Part shown: positions 3,570-44,499 of the stretch, one piece after another | How the letters are laid out: every line of letters starts with the position of its first letter | Numbering within the stretch: the stretch's first letter is position 1 | Source: a plasmid | Length of the DNA stretch: 55,804 nt | Direction: 5' to 3' (one strand) | Sequence record: NC_022046.1 | Translations under genes and position numbers: made by a program | The notes under the pieces: model-generated | Told to the model about the DNA's origin: nothing | What the model saw: the letters and a program-made list of their open reading frames with translations, nothing else | Database searches by the model: none

Positions 3570-3712
3570 CGAATCAACAAATCCTACAGATGTTTCTAAT
3601 ATATTTTCGACCGTAGCAGGAAGTGCTAACTTAATCAGGTTTTTTTAACATTCTGGTCATCGTTAGATTCGATTTTCATTGTCTTCATATACAACCACTC
3701 AATTCAATTTAT

Positions 3713-4519
3713 GGTTCTGTTGCAAAGTTCAAAGAAGTAAAATGATATCTCAACTATTTTCTAATTTTAAGCTGGAACACCCATTAGATTATTTATTTCA
3801 TGAATCACTGAAAAGCCAAAGAGAGAAAAGTCTCTTTGGCTAGTTTTGTATAAAGCATGTATAGTTTCAATTCCTTTGATTGTGGATGAGGCAGTCCTTA
3901 TGGACTGATATAATTTGTGCCTTTTCTTGATAGGCCTATGATCTTGTTCAATGATATTATTCAAATATTTACTCGTTCGATGTTCAGTGTTAGAAAATAA
4001 ACCTTCAGATTTAAGTCGATTGAACGCACTGCTTAGCGAAGGAGCTTTGTCCGTTACAAAAACTCTAGGTTCTCCAAATTGCTTGATTAATCGTTTAAAG
4101 AAAGCATAGGCCGCCTGTTTATCCCGATTCTTTCGCAACCAAATATCTAATGTCAAACCTGTAGAATCGATGGCACGATACAAATAATGCCATTTTCCTT
4201 TTACTTTAATATATGTTTCATCCATTCTCCAAGAATCGCTAGCAGACTTATTTCTTTTCTTCCATAGGCAATAAATAATCGAACCATATTCTTGTACCCA
4301 TCGATAAACAGTTGTGTGACAAACCTTGATTCCACGCTCATTAAGGATTTCTGAAACATCACGATAGCTCAAATTGTATCTTAAGTAGTAGCCCACGGCT
4401 ACCATGATGATATCCTGTTTGAATTGTTTACCTTTAAAATGGGACATTGTTATTCTCCTCGTGTAGTTTCTTCCATTCTACACTAAATAATCAGTTAAAT
4501 AAAACTTTGCAACAGAACC
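3713..4519 (-). mobile_element. IS6-family insertion sequence (IS1216/IS257-like), copy A, 807 bp.
   Basis: Terminal inverted repeats GGTTCTGTTGCAAAGTT at 3713-3729 and rc at 4503-4519. Contains a single 226-aa transposase gene. Near-identical second copy at 42186..42992. Confidence 0.85.
3767..4447 (-). CDS. tnp: IS6 family transposase.
   Basis: 226 aa starting MSHFKGKQFKQDIIMVAVGYYLRYNLSYRDVSEILNERGIKVCHTTVYRWVQEY, the hallmark IS6 (IS1216E / IS431-like) N-terminus, with a DDE core. Confidence 0.9.
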   Translation of the reverse strand: MSHFKGKQFKQDIIMVAVGYYLRYNLSYRDVSEILNERGIKVCHTTVYRWVQEYGSIIYCLWKKRNKSASDSWRMDETYIKVKGKWHYLYRAIDSTGLTLDIWLRKNRDKQAAYAFFKRLIKQFGEPRVFVTDKAPSLSSAFNRLKSEGLFSNTEHRTSKYLNNIIEQDHRPIKKRHKLYQSIRTASSTIKGIETIHALYKTSQRDFSLFGFSVIHEINNLMGVPA

Positions 4520-5654: not shown

Positions 5655-7772
5655 TTATTTAACTTTCATCAATCGTAATCCGTTTAATGTTACTAAAAGC
5701 GTTGCTCCCATATCTGCTACAATAGCAATCCATAGTGTTAGCCAACCTGGTATGACTAGTAGTAGAGCTAATAGTTTTATACCTAATGAGAAGGTGATAT
5801 TTTGCTTAATTACTTTTAGAGTTTGACGGCTAAGTCTAACAATGAATGGTAATTTTTGTAAATCGTCGCCCATTAGAGCAACATCAGCAGTTTCGAGAGC
5901 CGTATCTGTTCCTGCACCGCCCATTGCAATACCAACCGTCGATGCAGCTAATGCTGGTGCATCATTAATGCCGTCGCCCACCATTGCTACTTTATTATAA
6001 GTTGTCCGCAACGCTTTAATCGAATCTAATTTTTCTTGAGGCATTAGATCTCCTTTTATTTCAGTCACACCTAATTGCTTACCAATAGATTCAGCGGTTT
6101 TAGTATTATCACCAGTAAGCATAATAGTGTGTTCAATTGACAACTTGTGGAGTTCAGAAATAACGGCAGCACTTGAATCTCTTACTTCATCCGCGACAGC
6201 AATTACTCCTAAAATTTGTTCGTCAGTACCGAAATACATGGCGGTTTTCCCTTGTTCTTGAAATTGTCTGTATTGTACTTTGACCGCTGTTTCTTCGATT
6301 ACTGATGCAGAAAACAGTTTAGGGCTTCCAATATAGTAACGTATGTTTTGATGTATACCTGTAAGTCCTTTACCTGTGATAGATTGGAAATCCTCGATTT
6401 GTATTGACTTGTAATCCACATTAGTTTTATCCGCTTCGTTTAAAATAGCAGAAGCTAATGGGTGTTGAGAAAGAGATTCCAACGATGAAATAATCGATAG
6501 ATAATTTATATCAGTTTCAGAACTGGTTGCAATGAAATCCGTTACGACAGGCTTTCCTTTTGTTAAGGTTCCAGTCTTATCGAAAGCAATTGCTCTCAAA
6601 TGACCAATTTCTTCCAGATAGACTCCACCTTTTACTAAAACACCATTTTTTGCTGCATTACCAATAGCCGAAACAATTGAAACAGGTGTTGAGATCACTA
6701 ATGAACAAGGACATCCGACAACTAAAATGGATAACCCTTGGTAAAGCCATTTATTCCAGTCACCACCAAAGAATAGCGGAGGAACAACCACTATCAAAAG
6801 GGCCATAATAATTATGAATGGCGTATAGTATTTTGCAAATTTATCTACAAAGGCTTGTGCAGGAGCTCGTTCTCCTTGCGCTTCTTCAACTAAGTGAATG
6901 ATTTTGGCAATCGTTGTATCCGTTACTTTTTTTGTTACTTTGACTTCAAGAACACCTTCTTCATTTAGTGTTCCTGCAAACACTTCATCATCTAACTGTT
7001 TTTCAACAGGAACCGATTCTCCTGTTATTGCTGCTTGATTTACTGAAGAATGACCGTTGATAACAAGCCCATCCATGGCTATTTTTTGTCCCGGTTTAAT
7101 GATCATAATATCGTCGATATCGATTTTATCGACACTGACTAATTGCTCTACATTGTTTCTCCTGATAAGAGCTTCTTTGGGAGCTATATCCATAAGAGAA
7201 CGAATCGACTGTCTTGCTTTATCCATTGAAAATCGTTCCAAAGCTTCGCTAATAGCAAATAGTATTACTACAATAGAACCTTCGGCCCATTCTCCAATAA
7301 ATGCGGCCCCAATAATTGCAATAGTCATTAAAGATTCCATGGAGAAGTCCAATTTGATCAAATCAGAGAACCCTTCTTTAAATAAATCAAATCCACCAAT
7401 TATTATTGCCAATATATAAAGAGCTTTCGTTAATAAATGATCTTCGCCCAATGATAGTTGGGAAATCACAGCAACAAGTATAAAACCAAGAGAGATGATT
7501 AAAGCGATATTCCGTTTAATAAAAGACTCTTTTGATCTAACTTGTTCATCATTTTCTTGATCATCACGAATGATAAGATTTTCGAAGGCTCCCGCTTCTT
7601 CGAGTTCTTCAATTGTTGTTTGGCCTTCTACTGAAATCCTACTTGCACCAAAGTTTACTGTTGCACTCGTAACTCCTGGCAACTGCTTTACATTTTTTTC
7701 AAATTTACCTGCACAATTTGTACAGCTTAATCCTTCTATTCGATAGGTTTTTTCGGTCATTTTCTCACTCAT
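5655..7772 (-). CDS. cadA: Cadmium/zinc-translocating P1B-type ATPase CadA.
   Basis: 705 aa with an N-terminal HMA domain ([15 protein letters not shown]), CPC, DKTGTLT and [10 protein letters not shown] motifs. Strongly resembles pI258/Tn5422-type CadA, and its stop overlaps the cadC start. Confidence 0.92.
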
Positions 7773-8128
7773 GCTAGCACCTCTTCTTTAAAATTTACGC
7801 CAAGCTCCATAAGATTTAAGATTTTGATATTTTTAATAAAATAGTAGACTAACTTACCATCCTTGTGACTATCAACTACTCCCAATTTTTTTAAGGAGTT
7901 CAGATGGTGTGAAGTTGTTGCGACCGAAGCATCAATGATATTAGCAATATCACAAACACATAGCTCATCTTCATGAACTAAAGCATGTACAATTTTAAGT
8001 CGATTTTCATCTGACAATATTTTAAAGAAACCACTTACTGACGGAGTATCAAAGTTTGCTAGTTTAGATTTAGCACGATTAACTTTGTCTTCATGAATAC
8101 AAGTTATTTCACAAATTTCATTATTCAT
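7769..8128 (-). CDS. cadC: ArsR/SmtB family cadmium-responsive repressor CadC.
   Basis: 119 aa with [10 protein letters not shown] and HTH sequence [13 protein letters not shown]. Forms a 4-nt overlapping operon with cadA. Confidence 0.9.
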
Positions 8129-9159: not shown

Positions 9160-10596
9160 ATGAGTAATAAAAAAATTTTAGCTAATTACTCAGAGGAGCA
9201 GAGATTAAAAGCATTAAAAAAATTTCGGGTACTTCAGCCATACTTAAAAAAAGAAATTCCACTTTCCAAAGTAAGTGAAGAAAATGATATTTCAACACGT
9301 ACACTTAGAAAGTGGATTTCGAATTATAAAAAATCGGGATTGGTGGGATTAATTACAAAAGAAAGGTCGGATAAAAATTCAATGAAAATTTCTGAAGACC
9401 TTTGTAAAATCATTAAACACATTTACTTAGAAAATAAAAATGTTTCTATAACTTCCATTTATAGGAGAACTGTGTCTTGGTGTAAAGAAAATAATATTCA
9501 GGAGCCTTCTTACTATCAGGTAAGGAAAATTATTCAATTAGTTCCCGATAAATTGAAAGTACTAGCGCATCAGGGATCTAAAATATATATGAATCATTAC
9601 GAATTAGTTCATATTAGGGAAACTACAGCTCCCAATATCATATGGCAAGCTGATCATACATTATTAGACATTGAGGTATTGAATGCGAAAGGTTATCCTG
9701 AAAGGCCTTGGCTAACAATAATAATGGATGACTACAGTCGAGCAATTACTGGGTACTTTATTGCGTTTGAATCACCAAACTCACTACGAACAGCTCTAAC
9801 TCTAAGACAAGCAATATGGAGAAAAGATCAGGCTGACTGGCCTATTTGTGGTATCCCTAGAATTTTTTATACAGATCACGGTAGCGATTTTACTTCTCAA
9901 CATCTTGAACAGGTCTCTGCTGATTTGAAAATAGAATTAAAGTTTTCTAAGGTTGGGGTGCCTAGAGGTAGAGGGAAAATCGAACGGTTTTTTCATACTG
10001 TAAATTCTATGTTACTACAAGATCTTCCAGGTTATATTAAGAATCGGAAAGCAAAGTCAATGCTAACATTGGAGGAGTTTTCCGATATTTTCAGAAATTG
10101 GTTGTTAAGAATATACCATCAAAAACAGCATAGTACAACTAAAGAAAAACCTATAGCTATGTGGAATAACTATGATTTTCTACCGAATATGCCAAACTCT
10201 TTGGAGGATTTAGATCTTCTTTTAATAAAAGTTAAGAAAGAACGGGTGGTACACTCTGACGGTATTCACTTATTTGGGATGAAGTATGTCCACCCAACTC
10301 TTTCAGCTTTTGTTAGTGAACCTGTGGTGATTAGATATGATCCTAGAGATATTAGTGATGTTAGAGTCTTTTATAAAAATGTATTCCTTTGTACCGCAGT
10401 GTCTACATCTTTTGAACAATACGCTATCGGAATTAGAGAAATAGAAAAAGAAAGGAGCAAACTGAAAAGAGAGTTAAAAAGGGAACTAATCGTCTCCACT
10501 AATAAAGTGATAGAAAAATTGGTTGGGAGACAAAAAGAGAATAGTAGTACTGTTAAAAATAATGTATCAAGTTTGAGGAGGTATGAAAATGAATGA
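9160..10596 (+). CDS. Mu/Tn552-type DDE transposase (TnsB/TniA/p480-like).
   Basis: ~478 aa from an ATG with RBS AGGAGGTGAGGAA. N-terminal HTH, integrase-core motifs (IWQADHTLLDIEV ... DHGSDFTS), size and organisation like Tn552 p480. Confidence 0.8.
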   Translation: MSNKKILANYSEEQRLKALKKFRVLQPYLKKEIPLSKVSEENDISTRTLRKWISNYKKSGLVGLITKERSDKNSMKISEDLCKIIKHIYLENKNVSITSIYRRTVSWCKENNIQEPSYYQVRKIIQLVPDKLKVLAHQGSKIYMNHYELVHIRETTAPNIIWQADHTLLDIEVLNAKGYPERPWLTIIMDDYSRAITGYFIAFESPNSLRTALTLRQAIWRKDQADWPICGIPRIFYTDHGSDFTSQHLEQVSADLKIELKFSKVGVPRGRGKIERFFHTVNSMLLQDLPGYIKNRKAKSMLTLEEFSDIFRNWLLRIYHQKQHSTTKEKPIAMWNNYDFLPNMPNSLEDLDLLLIKVKKERVVHSDGIHLFGMKYVHPTLSAFVSEPVVIRYDPRDISDVRVFYKNVFLCTAVSTSFEQYAIGIREIEKERSKLKRELKRELIVSTNKVIEKLVGRQKENSSTVKNNVSSLRRYENE

Positions 10597-24205: not shown

Positions 24206-24281
24206 GGTTTTCTGTCAAGGGCCATATTAAAATGTTGGTTTTAGGCCACTGAAAATGTAGGTGAAAATCGTTTAAACGTTT

Positions 24282-25085
24282 TTACGATTTCACCTCTTTG
24301 TTTTCGCTATAACTCTTCATTCTATAAGAGGGCCCCGTAATTTGGATCAATTTAGAGTGATGGACCAACCGGTCCAGTAGCGCGTTGGTAAGCTTCTTGT
24401 TTCCAAATATTTCGGACCACTGGGATAGTGGGATATTGGTTGTAACAATCGTAGATTTTCTTTCATACCGCATATTAATCAGCTGAAAAAGTAAGTTGGA
24501 ATCTTCTTTGGAGAAAGGTAAATAGCCGACTTCGTCGATAATCAACACCGAATAACCCGAATATTTTTTTAGCATCGTTTCGCTAGTTCCGCGCTTGTGA
24601 GCGCGGATCAAACGATTCACTAATTCAGTGCTCGTAATGAACAAACAACTTAAACCACGATCGATACATTCTAATCCAATTGAAACGGCTAAATGGGTCT
24701 TTCCAACACCACTATTTCCAATAAAGAGAATATTGTCATATGTGTCTAAAAAGCGTAATGTTAATAAATCCTGCATTTCCTTCTTTTTTATCCTTGGTTG
24801 AAAATCAAAATTGAAATCATGGAGTCGTTTGTGGTAGGGGAACATTGCACGCTTTAATACCTTTTTTTGACTTTCTTTTTTACGATAACTAATTTCTTGT
24901 TGGGTGAGCTCGAATAAAGAGTCTACAAGCGATTTATCACTTTTGGCAACCTCATCTAAATGGGCAGGTAGATTTTCTTTCATGCAAGATAAATTCAATT
25001 CGTTTAGTTGATTTAACAATTGATGGTAATGGGACATCATTTCCTCCTTATAGATCGTCATATGCATGTAAATTATCATCGACAA
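24282..25085 (-). CDS. istB: IS21 family helper ATPase IstB.
   Basis: 267 aa, Walker A GNSGVGKTH, DnaA/DnaC-like AAA+ fold. Confidence 0.9.
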   Translation of the reverse strand: MSMIIYMHMTIYKEEMMSHYHQLLNQLNELNLSCMKENLPAHLDEVAKSDKSLVDSLFELTQQEISYRKKESQKKVLKRAMFPYHKRLHDFNFDFQPRIKKKEMQDLLTLRFLDTYDNILFIGNSGVGKTHLAVSIGLECIDRGLSCLFITSTELVNRLIRAHKRGTSETMLKKYSGYSVLIIDEVGYLPFSKEDSNLLFQLINMRYERKSTIVTTNIPLSQWSEIFGNKKLTNALLDRLVHHSKLIQITGPSYRMKSYSENKEVKS

Positions 25086-26274
25086 ATCGCTCTAATTCTT
25101 CATCTTCTAAATATTTAAATACATCGGAACGCAAAATTTCAAGCGAGTCTTCGCGTTGATAATTAAGCGCTTTTTCACTTATAGGATGGGTTCGAATACA
25201 TTTATCCCCATACCAAACAAATAGATTGTCCCTACGAATATCTAACGTCACTTCTTTCCCAATATATTTAACAGGAACAGAATATTTAGCATTTTGATAT
25301 TGAACCATGGACTCCATCGATACCTTTCTCAGTAGACGTTTATTTCTAGAAACATAGCTGAGCAATTCTAAACGATGGATGGGAGCTAGTATGGGAAGCT
25401 CTTCCTTTAGTAAAACCGTCGGTTTGTTGTGGATGGCTTGTGAGACGGAGCCATTCAGATCTTGCATCAATTCATATATGATCTGTTTTAACTCTTGTAC
25501 ATCTGTAAATTCATAATTAAAGACCATTAAACGCTCAACTGTTCGGGCTAATGCTTCCACTTTCCCTTTTGTTTGGGGTCTAAAAGGACGACAAGCAATC
25601 GGATGGAATCCAGCGTCTTTCGCAAATTGCCGGAATTTTTCATTGAAAACAGTTTGTGTGAATTGACTCTTACTACGGTCGACAACGGTTTTCATATTGT
25701 CAAACCAAATTTCTTGAGGAATACCGTTTCCGCAATATTCAAAGGCATTGACTAAACACTGAAAAACCGTCGGTTGTGTTCGATCAAAAGTGAGCTCTAA
25801 GTACTTCATTCTTGAGTAACCAAGAATATAGAGAAAAATATTGAAATAAAACACTTCACCGTCTCGGCTAACCATTTTAACGTTTTCTTTCCAATCTACT
25901 TGAGCAGAAAGACCGGGTGTGGTCTCAATGCGAATCGTTGCTTTTTGTACTTTTTCTTCCCGGTATTTACGACAATAACGTTTAATCGTTGTATAACTCC
26001 CTTTATAACCTTTTTTACCTAAGAAATAAAAGATAGAAGCTGCCGAACAATTTAATTCTAATTTATCACGAATAATTTCTTCAAAACCATGAAGCAAAGG
26101 AGGGACCGAAGGTTTTCTCTCTCTAAGCTTATCTAAATCCCCCGTCAATCCAGCTTCATAATAGCGTTTAACCGTTCGATAATCACAATTATATTGTTTG
26201 GCAAGGGCTGCGAAATTAGGATGAATTTCATTCATAATGTGTAGTAACACTCCTTCTAAGACATCTTTTCTCAT
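25048..26274 (-). CDS. istA: IS21 family transposase IstA.
   Basis: 408 aa with HTH N-terminus and DDE core; overlaps the istB start, as usual for IS21. Confidence 0.9.
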   Translation of the reverse strand: MRKDVLEGVLLHIMNEIHPNFAALAKQYNCDYRTVKRYYEAGLTGDLDKLRERKPSVPPLLHGFEEIIRDKLELNCSAASIFYFLGKKGYKGSYTTIKRYCRKYREEKVQKATIRIETTPGLSAQVDWKENVKMVSRDGEVFYFNIFLYILGYSRMKYLELTFDRTQPTVFQCLVNAFEYCGNGIPQEIWFDNMKTVVDRSKSQFTQTVFNEKFRQFAKDAGFHPIACRPFRPQTKGKVEALARTVERLMVFNYEFTDVQELKQIIYELMQDLNGSVSQAIHNKPTVLLKEELPILAPIHRLELLSYVSRNKRLLRKVSMESMVQYQNAKYSVPVKYIGKEVTLDIRRDNLFVWYGDKCIRTHPISEKALNYQREDSLEILRSDVFKYLEDEELERFVDDNLHAYDDL

Positions 26275-26377
26275 GATTCACTCTCCTTGGATAGTTTCAC
26301 GAAAAAGAATATCAGATTTGTCATGTACCTACATTTTCGATGGCCCTTTTCCTACATTTTAATATGGCCCTTTACAA

Positions 26378-26602
26378 TATGATCATACAAAACGGGTTGA
26401 AGAAAGTGAATTACGTCCAGGAGATCTTGTCTTTTACACAAAGACCTATAATGCAGGAAGGCCAGTAACACATGTTGCTTTTTACTTGGGAGATGGCAAT
26501 GTTTTTCAAGCAAGTGGAAACAAAATTAATTACAGTTCGATAAATAATAGCTACTGGAGAGCGCATTTATATGGGTTTGGTAGAGTGGCAGAATTTAATT
26601 GA
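26378..26602 (+). pseudogene. NlpC/P60-family peptidoglycan hydrolase, C-terminal ~74 codons only.
   Basis: Open frame from the IS21 boundary reads ...LRPGDLVFYTKTYNAGRPVTHVAFYLGDGNVFQASG..., the NlpC/P60 catalytic His region. No start codon is present. Confidence 0.55.
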
Positions 26603-33265: not shown

Positions 33266-34750
33266 ATGAACGAAGAAACTAGAAAAAAGAAAAAAAGACC
33301 TTCACTTACCACACTTTACGAAGGAACGATGAAGGAAATTACGAGCAATGAGAACCGTTACATCGAATTTTTGAATTTCGCCAGCAGGGTGCATAAATAT
33401 AGCTTTGATGAACAGCTGCTTTTATATGCACAAAAACAAGATGTCCACATGGTAGCGACATTTGATATTTGGAAAAAGCTTGGTCGGTTTGTGAAACGCG
33501 GATCTACTGCAGCGCTTCTATTTGATTACACGACACAACAAAGAAAGTATGTCTTTGATATATCCGAAACAGGCGGAGAACCCCTTCAGGTATTTGATTG
33601 GCAGTTACTTGATAATGACAAAAATGATTTACTTCGATATTGGAACACATATGAAAAACAGAGTGGTACGCTTGTCAATTGGGAAGATGGCATTCACGCA
33701 AAAATAGCTTCCTATCAAAAACCAATAGGTGATCAGATTCATCCGTTTTTTGTAAAAGATATTGAAGTGGTTGCAGCGTATATCATCTATCAACGAACAA
33801 ATACACTAATACCAGAGGATTTACTACTAGATGTACAGAGCGTTTTACAGATTGGGAAAAGAGATAATACGTTACTGGAGATACAACATTTTGCCAATTT
33901 AACCGCAAAGGAATTTTTACAAGATGTGGAACGCATTTTAAATAATGAACTGAAAAAAGAGAGGGTGCTTTACCATGACAGAATCAAATTTGAAGATGAG
34001 TTATCGCGAAGAGAATGGCAACCTGCTTCCAGAGATAGAAACGTCAGAAGAAATGATGCCGATTGGAAAGATCGGGAAGCTGATCCAATTGAAATGGGAG
34101 AAAGAAAAATCGCTTCAAGTGATGAAATGGAAGTTAAACGGAAATTATCTTCAGGAAGTGAAACGAATGGAAATTCAAGTGCAAGACAAGATCAACCAGT
34201 ATTACGAGAAACTCGTGACGAAAGAAAGCTTACCGACCGAGATGGAACCATTAGCGAGAGCGAAGCGTCTGAAATCGCTTCGGATGCAAGCAGAGGAGAT
34301 CATTCTGAACCAACTATAGTAGAAGAAGTAAAAGAATCTGAGCGATCAGGTTCTTTTTTTATGCCTGTCAGTGAGCGAGGAGAACAAGTCGATTTATTTG
34401 CAGAGGAAACAAAACACATGGAAGATCCAACCCTTCCTTATTTAGAAGATCATGAGGAAGAAACGGTGGAGAACTTTCGCTTTGCGGATACATTCACTTT
34501 TCCAAGTGGTCCAAAAGCTAAATTTCAAGCTAATATTGCAGCCATTCGATTGCTGCATCGATTAGAAACGGAGAATCGGTTCGCTAATAGCGAAGAACGC
34601 AATATATTAGCGCAATACTCAGGGTGGGGTGGTCTTGCGGATGCTTTTGATGAAAACAAGCTAGCGTTTCAAAAAGAATATCTCGAACTGAAGGAGTTAC
34701 TAACACCTGAAGAATATCAAGCAGCATTTGAAGGAACTTTAACGACCTAC
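33266..34750 (+). CDS. ArdC-like N-domain (DUF1738-type ssDNA-binding) conjugation protein (LtrC/TraC-like), 3'-truncated by IS21 copy 2.
   Basis: N-terminus YSFDEQLLLYAQKQDVHMVATFDIWKKLGRFVKRGSTAALLFD resembles ArdC/TraC1 N-domain. The ORF runs into the IS21 end at 34751 (track ORF end 34768 is IS-derived). Confidence 0.5.
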
Positions 34751-34852
34751 TGTAAAGGGCCATATTAAAATGTAGGAAAAGGGCCATCGAAAATGTAGGT
34801 ACATGACAAATCTGATATTCTTTTTCATGAAACTATCCAAGGAGAGTGAATC

Positions 34853-36077
34853 ATGAGAAAAGATGTCTTAGAAGGAGTGTTACTACACATTATGAATGAA
34901 ATTCATCCTAATTTCGCAGCCCTTCAAACAATATAATTGTGATTATCGAACGGTTAAACGCTATTATGAAGCTGGATTGACGGGGGATTTAGATAAGCTT
35001 AGAGAGAGAAAACCTTCGGTCCCTCCTTTGCTTCATGGTTTTGAAGAAATTATTCGTGATAAATTAGAATTAAATTGTTCGGCAGCTTCTATCTTTTATT
35101 TCTTAGGTAAAAAAGGTTATAAAGGGAGTTATACAACGATTAAACGTTATTGTCGTAAATACCGGGAAGAAAAAGTACAAAAAGCAACGATTCGCATTGA
35201 GACCACACCCGGTCTTTCTGCTCAAGTAGATTGGAAAGAAAACGTTAAAATGGTTAGCCGAGACGGTGAAGTGTTTTATTTCAATATTTTTCTCTATATT
35301 CTTGGTTACTCAAGAATGAAGTACTTAGAGCTCACTTTTGATCGAACACAACCGACGGTTTTTCAGTGTTTAGTCAATGCCTTTGAATATTGCGGAAACG
35401 GTATTCCTCAAGAAATTTGGTTTGACAATATGAAAACCGTTGTCGACCGTAGTAAGAGTCAATTCACACAAACTGTTTTCAATGAAAAATTCCGGCAATT
35501 TGCGAAAGACGCTGGATTCCATCCGATTGCTTGTCGTCCTTTTAGACCCCAAACAAAAGGGAAAGTGGAAGCATTAGCCCGAACAGTTGAGCGTTTAATG
35601 GTCTTTAATTATGAATTTACAGATGTACAAGAGTTAAAACAGATCATATATGAATTGATGCAAGATCTGAATGGCTCCGTCTCACAAGCCATCCACAACA
35701 AACCGACGGTTTTACTAAAGGAAGAGCTTCCCATACTAGCTCCCATCCATCGTTTAGAATTGCTCAGCTATGTTTCTAGAAATAAACGTCTACTGAGAAA
35801 GGTATCGATGGAGTCCATGGTTCAATATCAAAATGCTAAATATTCTGTTCCTGTTAAATATATTGGGAAAGAAGTGACGTTAGATATTCGTAGGGACAAT
35901 CTATTTGTTTGGTATGGGGATAAATGTATTCGAACCCATCCTATAAGTGAAAAAGCGCTTAATTATCAACGCGAAGACTCGCTTGAAATTTTGCGTTCCG
36001 ATGTATTTAAATATTTAGAAGATGAAGAATTAGAGCGATTTGTCGATGATAATTTACATGCATATGACGATCTATAA
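34853..36077 (+). pseudogene. istA: istA with a 2-bp deletion frameshift after codon 24.
   Basis: Copy 1 reads GCAGCCCTTGCCAAACAA; copy 2 reads GCAGCCCTTCAAACAA at 34917-34930. ATG at 34853 gives MRKDVLEGVLLHIMNEIHPNFAAL then shifts frame; the track ORF 34896..36077 starts from an internal frame. Confidence 0.8.
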
Positions 36078-36843
36078 GGAGGAAATGATGTCCCATTACC
36101 ATCAATTGTTAAATCAACTAAACGAATTGAATTTATCTTGCATGAAAGAAAATCTACCTGCCCATTTAGATGAGGTTGCCAAAAGTGATAAATCGCTTGT
36201 AGACTCTTTATTCGAGCTCACCCAACAAGAAATTAGTTATCGTAAAAAAGAAAGTCAAAAAAAGGTATTAAAGCGTGCAATGTTCCCCTACCACAAACGA
36301 CTCCATGATTTCAATTTTGATTTTCAACCAAGGATAAAAAAGAAGGAAATGCAGGATTTATTAACATTACGCTTTTTAGACACATATGACAATATTCTCT
36401 TTATTGGAAATAGTGGTGTTGGAAAGACCCATTTAGCCGTTTCAATTGGATTAGAATGTATCGATCGTGGTTTAAGTTGTTTGTTCATTACGAGCACTGA
36501 ATTAGTGAATCGTTTGATCCGCGCTCACAAGCGCGGAACTAGCGAAACGATGCTAAAAAAATATTCGGGTTATTCGGTGTTGATTATCGACGAAGTCGGC
36601 TATTTACCTTTCTCCAAAGAAGGTTCCAACTTACTTTTTCAGCTGATTAATATGCGGTATGAAAGAAAATCTACGATTGTTACAACCAATATCCCACTAT
36701 CCCAGTGGTCCGAAATATTTGGAAACAAGAAGCTTACCAACGCGCTACTGGACCGGTTGGTCCATCACTCTAAATTGATCCAAATTACGGGGCCCTCTTA
36801 TAGAATGAAGAGTTATAGCGAAAACAAAGAGGTGAAATCGTAA
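36040..36843 (+). CDS. istB: IS21 family IstB ATPase (copy 2).
   Basis: 267 aa, one substitution (E to G) relative to copy 1. Confidence 0.9.
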   Translation: MSMIIYMHMTIYKEEMMSHYHQLLNQLNELNLSCMKENLPAHLDEVAKSDKSLVDSLFELTQQEISYRKKESQKKVLKRAMFPYHKRLHDFNFDFQPRIKKKEMQDLLTLRFLDTYDNILFIGNSGVGKTHLAVSIGLECIDRGLSCLFITSTELVNRLIRAHKRGTSETMLKKYSGYSVLIIDEVGYLPFSKEGSNLLFQLINMRYERKSTIVTTNIPLSQWSEIFGNKKLTNALLDRLVHHSKLIQITGPSYRMKSYSENKEVKS

Positions 36844-36920
36844 AAACGTTTAAACGATTTTCACCTACATTTTCAGTGGCCTAAAACCAACATTTTAATA
36901 TGGCCCTTGACACTATAGCC

Positions 36921-37214
36921 TTATTGTTTGATATTTGCATCTTCATTATGATTATCTTTTATCTGTGTCTTTAATTCATCCAAAAACCTTACTCCTTCAT
37001 TGGTTTTCGTATATCGTACACTGCTCCCATACTTTATTCTTTTTACATATCCTAGATATTCAAGTGTATAAACCGCTTTTAACAACTCTGATTTCGTGAA
37101 GCGATTGGCGCCTTCAACGTCAATAATCATTTTACTAAGTTCCCAAGTCGTTGCATTTTCACTTTCGCAAGTTAGTAACACTTGCAACATAATTTCCTTT
37201 GATAATTTTTCCAT
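36921..37214 (-). CDS. Small putative winged-helix transcriptional regulator.
   Basis: ~97 aa from the ATG with RBS TGAGGGAT (track ORF starts at 37256); helix-turn-wing-like pattern TTWELSKMI...LEYLGYVKR. Confidence 0.35.
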   Translation of the reverse strand: MEKLSKEIMLQVLLTCESENATTWELSKMIIDVEGANRFTKSELLKAVYTLEYLGYVKRIKYGSSVRYTKTNEGVRFLDELKTQIKDNHNEDANIKQ

Positions 37215-37230
37215 ATCCCTCAAATACTCC

Positions 37231-38385
37231 TTAATGAGAACTCTTTGGCAAAGCAAGCTTAATAAACAAGGGCGACAAAATAGTCGTCATCACAATGATC
37301 GCAACGAATATAGAGTAATAGTCTTCACCTATGAAATGTAGCGATATCCCAATATTAAGTGTGACTAACGCCATTTCCCCTCTAGACATCATACCACTAC
37401 CAATCAAAAATGAATCCGGACGACTTAACTTACTTGCTCTAGCAGCAATATAACAACTTCCGAGTTTTGTAATAATCGCCAGCAATGTACCAAGTGCTAT
37501 CGGACCTACATTTCCCCAAATATCACTTAATGTGATCGCTGCTCCGATGGAAGTTAAAAATAGTGGAATGAAAATGGAATTGGCAATCAGATCGATTTCT
37601 TTCTCTACGCGCTGCTTGGTTCCAGAGATTGCCAACATTAATCCAAAAAAGAATGAACCCAAAACAGCACTTAATCCCATTAATTCTGCAAAGTATCCCC
37701 AAAAGAAGCAGATAATTAGTGTGATAGTAACTGGTAAAAAGGACCACGTCCATTTCTCCGTGTATCGTTTTATCCATGGTAATGCAAATTTATAGAATAA
37801 ATAAAGCATGATAAAGAAAAGTATTTTAGAAAGAAGCAAATCCCATAACATAAAAAAGATATTTGCAGTCGCTAACTGATCTACTGATTTATAAGCGCTT
37901 ATCAACAAGACCGCCAAAATATCATCAATAACCGCTGCGCCTAAAACAATGGCTGCCACTTTTGTTTGAAGTATATCGCTATCCATGAATATTTTTACAG
38001 TAATACTAACTGAAGTTGCCGAGAAAATAATTCCGACAAAAAATGACTCCATAGTCTCCATATGAAGATATTTTCCAAATAGTAAAAAAGCAACCAATGG
38101 AATTATAACACCAAATAAAGCAACAATAATGCTCGGCTTTAAATTGGCCTTCAATTTTTTAAAATCCGTTTCCATACCGGCAATAAACATCAGTAACAAT
38201 ACACCTATCTCGGAAAAGATATGTAAAAACTCCCCGGGTTGAACGATGTTTAACAAACTAGGACCTAATACTACACCTACTAATAACTCCCCAACTATTT
38301 TAGGTAAGCCCATTCGACTTGCCAATACCCCAAAAATTTGCGACACACCTAATACAAGAGCAATCGCTAAATAAATTTTTTCCAT
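37231..38385 (-). CDS. Cation:proton antiporter (CPA family, NhaP/KefB-type Na+/H+ exchanger).
   Basis: ~384 aa, 11-12 TM, N-terminal MEKIYLAIALVLGVSQIFGVLASRMGLPKIVGELLVGVVLGP typical of CPA exchangers. Start preferred at the ATG with SD AAGGAAGG spacing 10; the track ORF extends to 38466. Confidence 0.7.
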   Translation of the reverse strand: MEKIYLAIALVLGVSQIFGVLASRMGLPKIVGELLVGVVLGPSLLNIVQPGEFLHIFSEIGVLLLMFIAGMETDFKKLKANLKPSIIVALFGVIIPLVAFLLFGKYLHMETMESFFVGIIFSATSVSITVKIFMDSDILQTKVAAIVLGAAVIDDILAVLLISAYKSVDQLATANIFFMLWDLLLSKILFFIMLYLFYKFALPWIKRYTEKWTWSFLPVTITLIICFFWGYFAELMGLSAVLGSFFFGLMLAISGTKQRVEKEIDLIANSIFIPLFLTSIGAAITLSDIWGNVGPIALGTLLAIITKLGSCYIAARASKLSRPDSFLIGSGMMSRGEMALVTLNIGISLHFIGEDYYSIFVAIIVMTTILSPLFIKLALPKSSH

Positions 38386-38531
38386 ACCCTTCATTCCTTC
38401 CTTAAAACGAAAAAAGCCAATGCGTAAAGAACGTTTTCTCCCCCCAGAAAACAGAACTTGAAGCATAGGCTCAACCGATCGTCACTATTTGATTTTTCAT
38501 TTAACTATATTCCCTTTAAACCCTAACAAAT

Positions 38532-39770
38532 TTACTTTATTTTTGCAAGTTCTTCTTCAATCCGTAAAAATTGATTGTATTTCTCTACACGTTCTGACCG
38601 TGCAATTGAACCCGTTTTAATTTGCCCTGCATGCATAGCAACTGCAAAGTCCGCGATAAAGGTGTCCCCAGTCTCCCCTGAACGGTGGGAGATCATCGTT
38701 GCATAATTGTTTTTTCTAGCTAAATTTATCGTATCAATGGTTTCTGTTACTGTCCCGATTTGATTTAGCTTTATGAGGATCGCATTTCCAATCCCTTTAT
38801 CTATTCCTTGCTGAAAAATAATTGGATTTGTAACAAAAATGTCATCCCCAACCAATTGGACTTTATTTCCTAATTTCTCCGTCATTAATTTAAAGCCCTC
38901 CCAATCATGTTCAGACAATCCATCTTCAATCGAAATAATCGGAAACTCTTGTACGAGATGCTCGTAGTAGTGGATCATTTCTTCAGATGATAGTTGTTTC
39001 CCCTCAAAGTAATAAGTGTTATTTTCACTAAATTCACTTGCTGCCGGATCCATCGCAATCGCGATATCTTCTCCAGGCTTATATCCAGCTTTTTTTATGG
39101 CCTCTACCAATACTTCAAGAGCTTCTTCTGTAGAAGCGAGTCGTGGGGCAAATCCTCCCTCATCACCTACAGAGGTCGCCAATCCTCTTTTTGATAAAAG
39201 CTTTTTCAATGTATGGTAAACATCCGCAATGGATTCTAAGCCTTCTCGAAAAGAGAGCGCTGCAATGGGTGTGATTAAAAATTCTTGTACATCTATACCT
39301 GAATCTGCGTGCTTTCCGCCATTAATGACATTAAAAAATGGACGAGGAAGTTCTAAATCGATTCCACCCAGATAGCGATATAGGGGGACTGCTTCAGACT
39401 TTGCTGCAGCACGAGCTACAGCCATTGAAACACCTAAGATAGCATTAGCTCCTAGCCTGCTTTTATTCGCTGTTCCGTCTAATTCAATCATTTTATGATC
39501 AATTTCTCTTTGGTTAAATGGACTTATCCCTACTAAGGCATCATTTAATGTCAAATTTACATTCTGAACTGCGGTTTTCACGCCTAATCCCTGTAAACGA
39601 TCGCCCCCATCCCTAAGTTCCACTGCCTCTCGATCTCCAGTTGAAGCACCGGAAGGAACAGCTGCCCTTCCTATCGTTCCATCTGTTAAATGCACATCAA
39701 CTTCTACAGTAGGATTCCCTCGTGAGTCAAATATTTCCCTTCCTCGAACTTTACTAATTTTAATCCCCAT
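38532..39770 (-). CDS. eno: Enolase (phosphopyruvate hydratase).
   Basis: Start [26 protein letters not shown]... (RBS AAGGAG); enolase signature and Mg-binding residues; ~412 aa. Confidence 0.9.
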
Positions 39771-39791
39771 ACTAACCACTCCTTCAATCAA

Positions 39792-40154
39792 TTAAATATG
39801 ATTTCCTATATATAAACCTGCAAAAGCCATTAATAAGCCAATGCAGTATGATAGGCTCAAATATGTCAAAAATAAGAAATGCTTTTTTCGCAAGAGTAAA
39901 TCGACACTTTCGGATTTAAGCGTTGAAAATGTCGTGAATCCACCCATAAAACCAGTTCCTAAAAGCAGTGTCCAAATTACCGACAAATCGGAACCGATAA
40001 TAATCCCTAATAAAAAAGCACCCGTCATGTTGATTAAATACGTTCCCCAAGGAAATTGACTCTGTCCATTTTTTTTCATCCAGTTAGAGAATAAGTATCG
40101 TGCTAATGAACCAAAGACAGCGCCCACTCCTACTACTACACCTTGCAAAATCAA
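39792..40154 (-). CDS. crcB: Fluoride channel CrcB/FluC homolog (second of pair).
   Basis: 120 aa, 4 TM, GTGFMGGFTTFSTL motif. Confidence 0.85.
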   Translation of the reverse strand: MILQGVVVGVGAVFGSLARYLFSNWMKKNGQSQFPWGTYLINMTGAFLLGIIIGSDLSVIWTLLLGTGFMGGFTTFSTLKSESVDLLLRKKHFLFLTYLSLSYCIGLLMAFAGLYIGNHI

Positions 40155-40537
40155 TACCTCTCACTTCCTAACTTGAAGACATTGTTCCCAGCCCAATAGC
40201 CTAAACGTGCTGCAAGCAAGCCACCAAACAAGCTAACAGTGAGATAGATGATAAAATATTGGATATTCCCTTCTTGAAGGAAATGAATACTCTCAATTGT
40301 AAAAGTTGAGAAGGTGGTATAGGAGCCGACAAAACCAGTACCTAATCCAGTAATAAGATCTTTTGAGAAGAAAGAAAAATTAGCTATCCCTTGTACAATG
40401 AATGCTAATAAAAAGCATCCAGAAAGATTGATTGCTAATGTAGTGAATGGAAACCCCTGTGCGGTAAACAAACTGCTAATAATCCATCTAGTCATTCCTC
40501 CCAAGAAAGAAAAGACTATCAAATAAACAAACTTCAT
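40151..40537 (-). CDS. crcB: Fluoride channel CrcB/FluC homolog (first of pair).
   Basis: 128 aa, 4 TM, GTGFVGSYTTFSTF motif; overlaps the downstream crcB (heterodimer pair arrangement). Confidence 0.85.
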   Translation of the reverse strand: MKFVYLIVFSFLGGMTRWIISSLFTAQGFPFTTLAINLSGCFLLAFIVQGIANFSFFSKDLITGLGTGFVGSYTTFSTFTIESIHFLQEGNIQYFIIYLTVSLFGGLLAARLGYWAGNNVFKLGSERY

Positions 40538-40548
40538 TAAAATCCATC

Positions 40549-41184
40549 CTATCTATTTATAACTACATCTACGGGAGCGGTGAAAACAATGCCTTCTTCA
40601 AGAACACTTTTAATATCATCCACTAACTCCTTGACGTTCTCTTTAGACACTAAGCATTCTAGAACAATTGGCGTATTTTTACTTGTTGAAAACAAATTTT
40701 GGCTATGAATAACGTGATCCTTGCCAAAACCTGTAATCCCTTTTGTGACCGTAGTCCAAATCACATGTTTTTCTTGTAAATAACTCAACACTTTCTCATA
40801 ATCTTCAGGAGCGAACCAATTATTATTTTCTTTGGTAAAAATTTTCATTACATAATAGTTACTTTGTTCCACATTTTCTCCCTCCCATCCATTGATGACA
40901 CTGACTTGCCCCACAACAATTTTCCTTTTCAGACTTTTATTGATCTCCTTCGAAAGGCTTTCTGGAACAACGGTTTCAATAATGAGAGGTAAATCATTAA
41001 ATGGTTCATCCTCCAAAATAGCTATCTTCCTCTTATTATTAGTGTTAATTCCCATTTCACTTTTCCTTGTCGTCACTCCTGATACCCCAAGTTTCCACAG
41101 TAGTTCCATAACAGTCTTTTCAATAGTGTGATGATGTTCATCTTGAGCTTCTTCATCAATAACGACTCGTATCAATTTATCCAT
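40549..41184 (-). CDS. DUF190-like (PII-like fold) protein, first gene of the fluoride operon.
   Basis: 211 aa, about two tandem ~100-aa repeats; genomic context with crcB and a fluoride riboswitch is typical for DUF190. Confidence 0.55.
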   Translation of the reverse strand: MDKLIRVVIDEEAQDEHHHTIEKTVMELLWKLGVSGVTTRKSEMGINTNNKRKIAILEDEPFNDLPLIIETVVPESLSKEINKSLKRKIVVGQVSVINGWEGENVEQSNYYVMKIFTKENNNWFAPEDYEKVLSYLQEKHVIWTTVTKGITGFGKDHVIHSQNLFSTSKNTPIVLECLVSKENVKELVDDIKSVLEEGIVFTAPVDVVINR

Positions 41185-41198
41185 GTTTTCTCCTCCAC

Positions 41199-41295
41199 AA
41201 AAAAATGACTCCTACTTGAACAAACGTACCACCATACGTTTTCAAGTAGGAGTCATCAGCTTTTAAGCATTTAATGGCGAACTCCATCGCCTATT
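41199..41295 (-). ncRNA. Fluoride riboswitch (crcB RNA motif) with intrinsic-terminator expression platform.
   Basis: Minus-strand sequence AATAGGCGATGGAGTTCGCCATTAAATGCTTAAAAGCTGATGACTCCTAC matches the conserved fluoride aptamer. The terminator stem GACTCCTACTTGAA...TTCAAGTAGGAGTC + T7 shares the CCTAC 3' strand. RBS GGAGGAG and ATG (41184) follow. Confidence 0.8.
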
Positions 41296-41562
41296 GATTG
41301 ATAACATTATATATCTCTTATTCATATTTGTAAAGATTCTGAGAAGACTATAGACAAAACAAATGGCTTTTCCTTAATAAAATCAGCCCTATCAATATTT
41401 TTCATTGTATTCTGGCTAATATCAACTCAAACCCTGTTCAAATTTACTTTCAGTATTATTTTCACGGTTTAATACTCCTAGACCTATAATTATTCTTTCT
41501 TTACTCATAAGCCTCCCCCTGTAAAAATTTCAATTTGTTGAACTCTATAATCCAACTTATCA

Positions 41563-42185: not shown

Positions 42186-42992
42186 GGTTCTGTTGCAAAG
42201 TTTTATTTAACTGATTATTTAGTGTAGAATGGAAGAAACTACACGAGGAGAATAACAATGTCCCATTTTAAAGGTAAACAATTCAAACAGGATATCATCA
42301 TGGTAGCCGTGGGCTACTACTTAAGATACAATTTGAGCTATCGTGATGTTTCAGAAATCCTTAATGAGCGTGGAATCAAGGTTTGTCACACAACTGTTTA
42401 TCGATGGGTACAAGAATATGGTTCGATTATTTATTGCCTATGGAAGAAAAGAAATAAGTCTGCTAGCGATTCTTGGAGAATGGATGAAACATATATTAAA
42501 GTAAAAGGAAAATGGCATTATTTGTATCGTGCCATCGATTCTACAGGTTTGACATTAGATATTTGGTTTCGAAAGAATCGGGATAAACAGGCGGCCTATG
42601 CTTTCTTTAAACGATTAATCAAGCAATTTGGAGAACCTAGAGTTTTTGTAACGGACAAAGCTCCTTCGCTAAGCAGTGCGTTCAATCGACTTAAATCTGA
42701 AGGTTTATTTTCTAACACTGAACATCGAACGAGTAAATATTTGAATAATATCATTGAACAAGATCATAGGCCTATCAAGAAAAGGCACAAATTATATCAG
42801 TCCATAAGGACTGCCTCATCCACAATCAAAGGAATTGAAACTATACATGCTTTATACAAAACTAGCCAAAGAGACTTTTCTCTCTTTGGCTTTTCAGTGA
42901 TTCATGAAATAAATAATCTAATGGGTGTTCCAGCTTAAAATTAGAAAATAGTTGAGATATCATTTTACTTCTTTGAACTTTGCAACAGAACC
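42186..42992 (+). mobile_element. IS6-family insertion sequence, copy B, 807 bp, inverted relative to copy A.
   Basis: Terminal inverted repeat GGTTCTGTTGCAAAGTT at 42186-42202, rc at 42976-42992. The transposase differs by one residue (L to F) from copy A. Confidence 0.85.
42258..42938 (+). CDS. tnp: IS6 family transposase.
   Basis: 226 aa, identical to 3767..4447 except one substitution. Confidence 0.9.
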   Translation: MSHFKGKQFKQDIIMVAVGYYLRYNLSYRDVSEILNERGIKVCHTTVYRWVQEYGSIIYCLWKKRNKSASDSWRMDETYIKVKGKWHYLYRAIDSTGLTLDIWFRKNRDKQAAYAFFKRLIKQFGEPRVFVTDKAPSLSSAFNRLKSEGLFSNTEHRTSKYLNNIIEQDHRPIKKRHKLYQSIRTASSTIKGIETIHALYKTSQRDFSLFGFSVIHEINNLMGVPA

Positions 42993-43200
42993 AGAGAATC
43001 CATTAATTTATTAGTATGACTAATAAATAATACAAATCCTACATTTACATTGATTACAGAATGGAGCCGAACTAGACTTTTAATAAGAAAAGTCATAGAT
43101 ATCAGGCCAAAGTAACTACTATCGTTATAATTGATTATATTAGGAATGTTGCATGTAGCACGTTTTATTAGAGATGACTAGGTTATAAAAATATTAATAA

Positions 43201-44499
43201 TTGATATTAATAGGGATGGTGGTTATCATTACAGTGGATAATACTTATTTAACAGATGTATTTAATCAATACAAAACACGCGAAAATTTACTTTATCAAA
43301 CTTGGTTTATAAAAAGTGAAAAACGCTTGAGAGCGTTTAAAAGAGTTAGAAAATATGTACAACTATTTATCAAACATGTCAATAACGGAACCTTTCCAAC
43401 AGACTTTAAAAATTCAGCATTAGAGGACATAATGGATGTAATTGCAGAACAAACAGAAATTTTTAAAGGAGCCAAACATGCATTTATGTGGAAACCTAAA
43501 TTGAGAATTCCAGATATTTATGAAAATAGGGAAAATCAGTTAGCTTTTTCACATTGTCTTGATCAAATTCTTAAAGCTAATCAAGAAATAAAAATGTTAT
43601 TAGCTGTAAATATTCTAACAGAAAAGAAAATCAGAGGGCTTGGTCCCGCTGTCGCAAACATTTTATATTTTCTTGAACCCACCATTTTTCCTCCTTTTAA
43701 CACAGCTATTGTCAATGGATATAATTATCTAACGGGTTCAAAAATTCGCTTAGGTAAATGGGAAGACTATTTTAAACTTCGTGATGGTATGATTGAGCTC
43801 AACTGCAGAGGAGGACAATTTTCGAAAGATTTGGGTGCTATTTCAGCTTTTTTATTTGATATTGGTAAACTAAACTATATTGTTCGCGAAAATGAAGAGG
43901 AGTATATCAGAATTTCAGAAAGTAACACTCAGAAATTAATAAAAAAGAAGCTGGAAAAAGAAGATTCCAAAAATGTACACCAAAAAATCCAATATATCTT
44001 AGCTACTTTAGGTAATGAGATAGGTTATCATGCGTGGATTGCCTCAAATGATCATAATAGAATGGTAGATGGGAATCGCTTAGGAGATGTTTCTTTACCT
44101 CTGTTACCGGAAAAAATCTATCAATTACCAATTTCGTTAAGTAGGACAATTGGTTTGATTGATGTTATTTGGTTTTCAAAAAATGGGGAACCGGTGTGTG
44201 CTTTTGAGGTTGAAAAGTCGACATCAATAATTTCTGGGATGAATCGAATGGATGATTTGTATTCGATTCATCAAGAAAATTTGATGATGTATATCGTATC
44301 ACCAAATCAACGTGAAGAGGAAATACGAGCACAATTTAATAGACCACATTATATGCGTAATCAAAATTTGCATGATCACTTACGATACATTCTGTTTACA
44401 GATTTGGAGAAACATGCTAATTTTATGAAGAAATTTGGCAAAGATTTTACAATTTTAGCCCCGATATCTCATTATCCAAGTGGTGAACTAGTTCGGTAG
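43201..44499 (+). CDS. Solitary PD-(D/E)xK-like nuclease candidate (orphan restriction/defence-type protein).
   Basis: 432 aa. C-terminal LIDVIWFSKNGEPVCAFEVEKS fits the D...(D/E)xK nuclease core. Conserved-looking GLGPAVANILYFLEP block mid-protein. No methyltransferase gene nearby. Start is TTG (43201) or ATG (43216), both with weak RBS. Confidence 0.45.
   Translation: MILIGMVVIITVDNTYLTDVFNQYKTRENLLYQTWFIKSEKRLRAFKRVRKYVQLFIKHVNNGTFPTDFKNSALEDIMDVIAEQTEIFKGAKHAFMWKPKLRIPDIYENRENQLAFSHCLDQILKANQEIKMLLAVNILTEKKIRGLGPAVANILYFLEPTIFPPFNTAIVNGYNYLTGSKIRLGKWEDYFKLRDGMIELNCRGGQFSKDLGAISAFLFDIGKLNYIVRENEEEYIRISESNTQKLIKKKLEKEDSKNVHQKIQYILATLGNEIGYHAWIASNDHNRMVDGNRLGDVSLPLLPEKIYQLPISLSRTIGLIDVIWFSKNGEPVCAFEVEKSTSIISGMNRMDDLYSIHQENLMMYIVSPNQREEEIRAQFNRPHYMRNQNLHDHLRYILFTDLEKHANFMKKFGKDFTILAPISHYPSGELVR

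Follow-up and report, generated by a model that had tools for sequence, protein, structure and literature searches.

The analysed DNA is a stretch of 55,804 nucleotides from the plasmid record NC_022046.1 (the window), and its subject here is a minus-strand operon that begins with a fluoride riboswitch. Behind the fluoride leader the operon comprises a double-DUF190 gene, two crcB/FluC genes, an extra enolase gene (eno), a Na+/H+ antiporter gene and a gene for a DUF3116 protein. An earlier note, made from the sequence alone, had named the DUF190, crcB, enolase and antiporter genes, and the Pfam assignments agree with it; the DUF3116 gene is additional. The plasmid origin proposed there is also borne out. 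Five Listeria plasmids match the 4.5-kb operon region at 99.9-100% identity, the top match being L. monocytogenes p2017-TE-6913-1 (NZ_MT459813.1) at 100% identity. Five further plasmids match partially, and all 10 matching plasmids are from Listeria. Between eno and the antiporter gene lies a second regulatory RNA, very probably a variant of the Na+-I (DUF1646-type) riboswitch class. The operon is probably a chimera in which one ion-sensing module was fused behind another, with the sodium switch downstream of the fluoride switch. The features are collected in Table 1.

Table 1. Features of the operon region and the nearest mobile elements (positions in the window)
Feature	Position	Strand	Basis
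IS6-family element nearest the operon	42186..43004	+	Pfam DDE_Tnp_IS240
Fluoride-operon promoter, TTTACA-17-TATAAT (11/12)	41306..41334	-	Promoter scan
Fluoride riboswitch aptamer	41240..41300	-	RF01734, 60 bits; pairings read from the sequence and the Rfam alignment
Fluoride-leader intrinsic terminator, hairpin 41257-41204 and U7 41203-41197	41197..41257	-	Fold prediction
Double-DUF190 / P-II-like protein, 211 aa	40549..41184	-	Pfam PF02641, two stretches, 2.5e-28
crcB/FluC paralogue 1, 128 aa	40151..40537	-	Pfam PF02537, 1.3e-23
crcB/FluC paralogue 2, 119 aa	39792..40151	-	Pfam PF02537, 7.1e-27; start as annotated in an identical plasmid
Extra enolase gene (412 aa), at the end of the fluoride module	38532..39770	-	Pfam Enolase_N and Enolase_C; annotated start
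Junction of fluoride and sodium modules	38477..38550	-	Homology breakpoints 38550 (relative L088) and 38479 (sodium module)
Na+-I (DUF1646-type) aptamer, variant form	38433..38476	-	RF03071; independent covariance model R2
Predicted sodium-switch terminator, hairpin 38472-38414 enclosing P2, then U6	38410..38472	-	Fold prediction
Single-base difference in terminator 3' arm (RNA U)	38419	-	Plasmid comparison
NapA/GerN-like CPA2 Na+/H+ antiporter, 384 aa	37231..38385	-	Pfam PF00999 (Na_H_Exchanger), 6.6e-69
DUF3116 protein	36921..37214	-	Pfam PF11313
IS21-family element (istA/istB) abutting the DUF3116 end	34748..36912	+	Inverted twin at 24213-26379

The region 38386-38531 had been searched for a second riboswitch in the earlier note, which reported none, and this has to be revised. 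The Rfam model RF03071 (Na+ riboswitch, DUF1646 motif) matches 38476-38433 on the minus strand with 40.9 bits and an E-value of 4e-5; the gathering score, which is Rfam's curated cut-off, is 40.5 bits. Besides the fluoride aptamer (RF01734), this site is the only Rfam match at the gathering threshold in the whole window. The comparative evidence agrees. Three antiporter lineages were compared, namely the window, the plasmid NZ_CP014254.1 (L001) and a chromosome-like Logan contig (L003). Their antiporter coding sequences have 75-77% nucleotide identity, and the identity just upstream of the aptamer falls to 47-60%. Over the aptamer and the next 8 nucleotides (52 nt in all), the window and NZ_CP014254.1 show 0 differences, and the chance of this at 75.6% identity is about 5e-7. 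The contig has two differences over the same 52 nt, and these are both partners of one P2 pair, in which U-A is replaced by C-G.

The covariance model R2 was built from 13 leaders of homologous antiporters of Lactobacillaceae and Clostridia, and contains no Listeria sequence. With the filters off, it places the Na+-I site top in the window, with 22.5 bits (E about 0.002) and a runner-up at 10.9 bits, and also recovers the equivalent sites in NZ_CP014254.1 and the contig. The model R1, which comprised 8 Lactobacillaceae leaders, was too narrow. It gave clostridial examples 20-25 bits and the contig site 15 bits, did not list the window at E ≤1, and was superseded by the broader R2. The motif GGUUG...UCAAG...GGG is present directly upstream of an antiporter relative in 15 of 80 loci, and just 2 of those 15 reach the RF03071 gathering score. 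The Rfam model thus gives too low a score to the short-P1 forms that are common in Lactobacillales. An alignment of 17 sequences has standard pairs in 93% of its cells (73% in shuffles), with 11 of the 15 pairs changed on both sides, and slid-partner controls are at most 61% paired. Plain MAFFT alignments misplaced the aptamer P2 and were not used for pair counting. The gene downstream of the aptamer is a napA-like antiporter, and a sodium-related gene in this position is a trait of the Na+-I class; the 'kefB' genes with which the class is most often linked in fact encode napA-like Na+/H+ antiporters (PMC9337991). The evidence as a whole makes it highly likely that the element at 38476-38433 is a genuine Na+-I-type regulatory RNA.

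The clade that carries this form is small. Protein searches returned three antiporter clusters with identities of ≥77%, below which the values fall to about 40%, and the double-DUF190 architecture occurs in three clusters of the protein database, the window's and two others, so more covariation was not obtainable. A metagenome scan for Listeria-type aptamers (GGTTGAGC-N4-GCTTCAAG-N11-GGGNNG) found no new lineages, and its three hits were chance matches in GC-rich coding sequence. Short-P1 Na+-I-like leaders upstream of antiporter homologues were also seen in Lactobacillaceae and Enterococcus (loci L014, L019, L026, L030, L031, L038, L039, L051, L055, L056, L061, and L072). In an Rfam rescan, L014, L019, L051, and L056 were all below the RF03071 gathering score.

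The protein behind this switch has Thermus thermophilus NapA as its nearest solved structures (4BWZ/5BZ3, E 5e-41, full length). Several RefSeq plasmid records set its start at ATG 38466, which gives a coding sequence of 1236 nt whose frame crosses both the aptamer and the terminator; the long RefSeq start thus runs through regulatory RNA. In NZ_CP014254.1 the upstream frame reaches a stop before the antiporter start, which fixes the true, conserved start at ATG 38385 (MEKIY...). The open reading frame from ATG 38466 was rejected as coding, as the extension is open in window-type plasmids only. In the two versions of the sodium module that lie on plasmids, a DUF3116 gene accompanies the antiporter. 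No salt-stress expression data for the antiporter were found in the Listeria plasmid literature.

The terminator of the sodium switch is predicted as one long hairpin. Its basal stem pairs GAGCCUAUGC, which consists of P1 nucleotides, with GCAUUGGCUU, and the long hairpin therefore cannot coexist with P1. In NZ_CP014254.1 and the contig the 3' arm of the terminator reads AAGUAUAGGUU and retains perfect pairing to the 5' arm, which is unchanged. The same layout, with P2 enclosed by the terminator and P1 in competition with it, is present in 10 Lactobacillaceae leaders and in an Enterococcus hermanniensis leader (L019), whereas in clostridial leaders the terminator takes the place of P2, as published. 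The terminator is thus predicted to compete with the aptamer in an ON-switch layout. A weak GAGAAAA/UUUUUUC terminator that would form at the cost of P2 was rejected; its pairs are nearly all A-U, and neither the minimum free energy fold nor the relatives support it. Position 38419 is U in the window and in NZ_MT459813.1, and A in eight other Listeria plasmids, NZ_CP014254.1, and the contig. The U leads to a U-U mismatch, and the predicted terminator has -20.4 instead of -25.0 kcal/mol. By this folding model, the U at 38419 should raise the basal expression of the antiporter.

The Listeria aptamer has a short P1 of six pairs with one bulged U (UUG-AGC with GCU-(U)-CAA, loop CUAU), and a P2 of GUUUUCU with AGAAAAC and the loop GGGGGG. 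Of the conserved core, GGUUG, UCAAG, and the GGG of the loop are retained. Two core positions are altered, with U in place of A after CAAG and G in place of U after GGG. The P2 loop has GGGU in 15 of 15 non-Listeria examples and GGGGGG in all three Listeria-type copies, and the base after CAAG, which is U in the Listeria type, is A in 14 of the other 15. The loop Gs are needed for Na+ binding in the validated example, in which their mutation abolishes binding, and the discoverers of the class leave room for specificity variants (PMC9337991). The Listeria form is a fixed variant, and its ligand is presumably Na+.

When compared to the validated leader of Clostridium acetobutylicum kefB/napA (PMC9337991), the Listeria element shares the two-hairpin fold, the GGUUG...UCAAG base of P1, and the G-rich P2 loop. 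It likewise precedes a napA-like antiporter, with a terminator that is mutually exclusive with the aptamer (predicted ON). In contrast, its P1 is cut to 6 bp and a tetraloop, it has GGGGGG for GGGGUG and U for A after CAAG, its terminator competes with P1 and encloses P2 while the clostridial one replaces P2, and it lies inside an operon and not at the operon 5' end. The closest relative of the aptamer is the E. hermanniensis leader (L019 1871-1914), which has a nearly identical P1 (GGUUGAGC-GUAU-GCUUCAAG) and the same P1-competing terminator layout. It differs in retaining the canonical CAAG-A and GGGU core, in having a different first gene, and in the absence of a fluoride module. The E. hermanniensis locus (L019 1871-6022) contains this Na+-I-like leader, then a 917-aa P-type cation ATPase, and then a NapA-like antiporter.

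The leader at the head of the operon is a canonical fluoride riboswitch. The sequence quoted for it in the earlier note is found from 41295 onward on the minus strand, and the covariance-model search proposed there gives RF01734 60.0 bits against a gathering score of 34. The match covers 41300-41240 and model positions 1-64 of 64, with E 3.5e-14 in a search of the whole 55.8-kb window. The stems P1 (GGCG 41291-41288 with CGCC 41279-41276) and P3 (GCU with AGC) are present, as is the pseudoknot from the P1 loop to the 3' tail (GGAGU 41285-41281 with ACUCC 41253-41249). The leader folds into the P1 hairpin and a long hairpin (41257-41204) followed by U7, at -43.4 kcal/mol and z -6.4, and 0 of 200 shuffles were as stable. 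The last 18 nucleotides of the aptamer, among them the pseudoknot strand ACUCC, double as the 5' arm of the terminator, GAUGACUCCUACUUGA (41257-41240). The two structures thus exclude each other, as had been claimed and as is expected of a fluoride ON switch. The closest relative of the fluoride module, on the chromosome-like contig L088, is 78% identical, keeps both promoter hexamers, and has the same aptamer-terminator layout.

This part of the operon is already in the literature. In L. monocytogenes, a fluoride riboswitch identified with Infernal and two crcB genes were described for pLM7802 (PMC9484302), and a CPA-enolase-CrcB block was described in 11 Listeria plasmids (PMC8508797). The full-length aptamer, the terminator-based ON platform, the crcB pair, DUF190, and enolase of the published operons are likewise present here. 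The published descriptions mention neither a second switch nor a two-module origin, and otherwise there is no material difference. The fluoride-riboswitch operon ahead of DUF190-crcB-crcB-eno is thus genuine, canonical, and known, and the main finding of the earlier note is correct but not new, because the gene block and the riboswitch had been published. New here are a Na+-I-type riboswitch variant within the operon that had not been reported, the operon's origin from two modules, and the mis-set antiporter start codon in annotations.

The two modules also occur apart. The sodium module stands alone in the plasmid NZ_CP014254.1, where the aptamer, the napA-like gene, and the DUF3116 gene have their own promoter (TTTACC-17-TATAAT), and it is also present in the chromosome-like contig L003. 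The contig L088 has a double-DUF190 gene with 73% identity and the order DUF190, crcB, (crcB), eno, with no antiporter after it. Its 78% nucleotide identity to the window extends from the promoter at 41335 to 38550, 18 nt before the eno stop, and the homology of the stand-alone sodium module begins where the aptamer has its 5' edge (38479). At the junction, no terminator was found, and a promoter scan of the 55-nt spacer between eno and the aptamer gave no match of ≥9/12. The window position that corresponds to the -35 box of the NZ_CP014254.1 module falls in the end of eno and resembles nothing. About 45 nt past eno, L088 contains a GC-rich hairpin followed by a run of U (CACCCUCC...GGAGGGUG-UUUUU, 10290-10340), which was read by eye, was not flagged by the terminator scan, and is absent from the window. 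The two breakpoints, the relative without an antiporter, the stand-alone module with its own promoter, and the spacer without one therefore argue that the operon arose by fusion of a fluoride and a sodium module, and that the hairpin after eno and the -35 box of the sodium module appear to have been lost.

The mechanism suggested by this arrangement has two steps. In module 1 (41334-38532), the promoter would fire and the terminator (41257-41197) would form when fluoride is absent. With fluoride, the aptamer pseudoknot would hold GAUGACUCC and block the terminator, and DUF190, the two CrcB/FluC subunits, and the spare enolase would be made. In module 2 (38476-36921), the long hairpin and U6 would end transcription after eno when the ligand is absent. 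On binding of Na+, or of whichever cation the variant prefers, P1 would form with the use of GAGCCUAUGC, and the NapA-like antiporter and DUF3116 would be transcribed. Because the fusion would have removed the hairpin after eno and the -35 box, transcripts released by fluoride would run from eno into the sodium switch, and the antiporter would need fluoride (or a weak internal promoter) and sodium, an AND-like gate. Computation supports the two aptamers, the two terminators, the gene identities, the origin from two modules, and the conservation with covariation; the binding of the ligands, the ON logic in the cell, and the coupling of the switches are inferred. Such serial coupling of the two switches is a real possibility that falls a little short of probable. 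Natural tandem gates such as the Na+-I and c-di-AMP (cyclic di-AMP) pair of Dehalobacter (PMC9337991) also have two aptamer-terminator units on one transcript. The Listeria units differ in being 2.8 kb apart with four genes between them, in a coupling that is so far a proposal, and in that the first signal would control all genes and the second just the last two.

Several observations weigh against this interpretation. The RF03071 score is marginal, 0.4 bits over the threshold, and the near-identical contig site is below the gathering threshold in a larger search. The fold of the whole sodium leader is unremarkable (z 0.22), the alignment used for covariation was fitted to the model and contains related sequences, and two near-invariant core positions are altered, so that Na+ binding is not assured. 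A -10-like box (TATAGT, 38509-38504) is spaced from the aptamer just as TATAAT is in the stand-alone module of NZ_CP014254.1; it was read by eye and reported by no tool, with the spacing taken from the alignment of the aptamer region. In addition, pLI100-type plasmids keep module 2 after the loss of the fluoride switch, which suggests that this module can function by itself. The marginal score, the altered core, and the unremarkable fold would be expected if the antiporter were a plain member of the fluoride regulon, as the earlier note had it, and the riboswitch match were chance or a dead relic; fluoride riboswitches do precede Na+/H+ antiporters in some bacteria, C. difficile among them (PMC11477304). 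However, in three lineages whose coding sequences have diverged by 25% and whose upstream flanks do not align, the 52-nt element either stays the same or shows a compensated change. The arm of the terminator varies in step with this element, and the independent model R2 ranks the site first. The same motif lies ahead of 15 homologous antiporters, and the fluoride-module relative L088 has no antiporter. This explanation is very improbable, and the antiporter has its own Na+-I-type aptamer and terminator in a separate module that occurs alone elsewhere.

The TATAGT box and the pLI100-type plasmids bear more on the possibility that the modules are mere neighbours, in which the antiporter is made mainly from its own internal promoter and the fluoride and sodium responses are independent. 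The residual box does make a weak internal promoter possible. Even so, the spacer shows no -35 box, no extended -10, and no promoter match of the scanned quality, and the lack of a terminator between eno and the aptamer, where L088 has a terminator-like hairpin, makes read-through from eno structurally unavoidable. Independent responses are thus rather unlikely, less so than the other alternatives. A working riboswitch of the Na+-I fold may instead have had its ligand (e.g., Li+ or K+) or its working concentration shifted by the two substitutions. These are common to all three Listeria-type copies, the closest aptamer relative in E. hermanniensis keeps the canonical core, the loop Gs belong to the binding core, and the discoverers allow for specificity variants (PMC9337991). 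In contrast, the switch still controls a Na+/H+ antiporter of the NapA type, and the altered positions are outside those mutated in the published work (PMC9337991). A shifted ligand or concentration is improbable. A combined form, in which a serial two-ion gate has a second switch whose fixed CAAG-U and GGGGGG substitutions may alter cation selectivity or affinity, is also unlikely, though slightly less so. The preferred reading remains that of two ion-sensing modules fused into one operon.

Among the genes of the fluoride module, the start of the second crcB paralogue overlaps the stop of the first. The CRCB domain (PF02537) is present in both adjacent reading frames, as a heterodimer-type paralogue pair would require.

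The operon had also been described as an IS6-bracketed, mobilisable cassette. The bracketing by insertion sequences (IS) holds in that the IS6 copy nearest the operon has an inverted partner at 3701-4519 with 99% identity. The 37.7 kb between the copies, however, includes the plasmid backbone, with replication and partition genes (primase/Rep, ParA-type PrgP), and does not show the close copies and discrete cargo of an IS6-flanked composite transposon. The reading as a mobilisable cassette is therefore weak, since the IS6 copies enclose the replicon itself and other plasmids show piecemeal IS-mediated truncations. In pLIS10 (L091 7176-7917) an IS6 transposase gene is directly upstream of DUF190 and replaces the promoter and the fluoride riboswitch. 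In pLI100-type plasmids (L092 3659-4852) an IS3 element cuts the 5' end of eno and leaves eno'-switch-antiporter-DUF3116. The block is reshaped piecemeal by insertion sequences and is not moved as one unit.

Other features of the plasmids were noted. The two IS21 copies (24213-26379 and 34748-36912) are 100% identical and inverted, and surround about 8.4 kb with MobP2 relaxase, Fic, and ArdC-like genes, which is possibly a composite element. A reading frame of 432 aa beside the IS6 element (43201-44499, plus strand) has no Pfam match at E ≤0.001. The plasmid NZ_CP014254.1 contains rli28 (2661-2765, 156 bits), a sub-threshold LhrC-like match (7729-7917, 54.7 bits), and a RatA-like match (7971-8058, 46.1 bits); in the window, none of these reaches the threshold in the Rfam search.

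The fluoride operon itself brings nothing new, as Listeria plasmids from food-processing environments are known to carry it as an accessory block. What is useful is the sodium-type switch, which the annotations lack and which accounts for the movement of the antiporter as a separate module. It also indicates that Rfam's threshold overlooks many short-P1 Na+-I forms in Lactobacillales. The Listeria variant is natural material for asking which nucleotides of the Na+-I core determine the selectivity for a cation. Should the serial coupling hold, the operon would be an example of two ion-sensing RNAs that partition one operon. The tolerance to salt and sanitisers that is linked with Listeria plasmids is also of practical interest.

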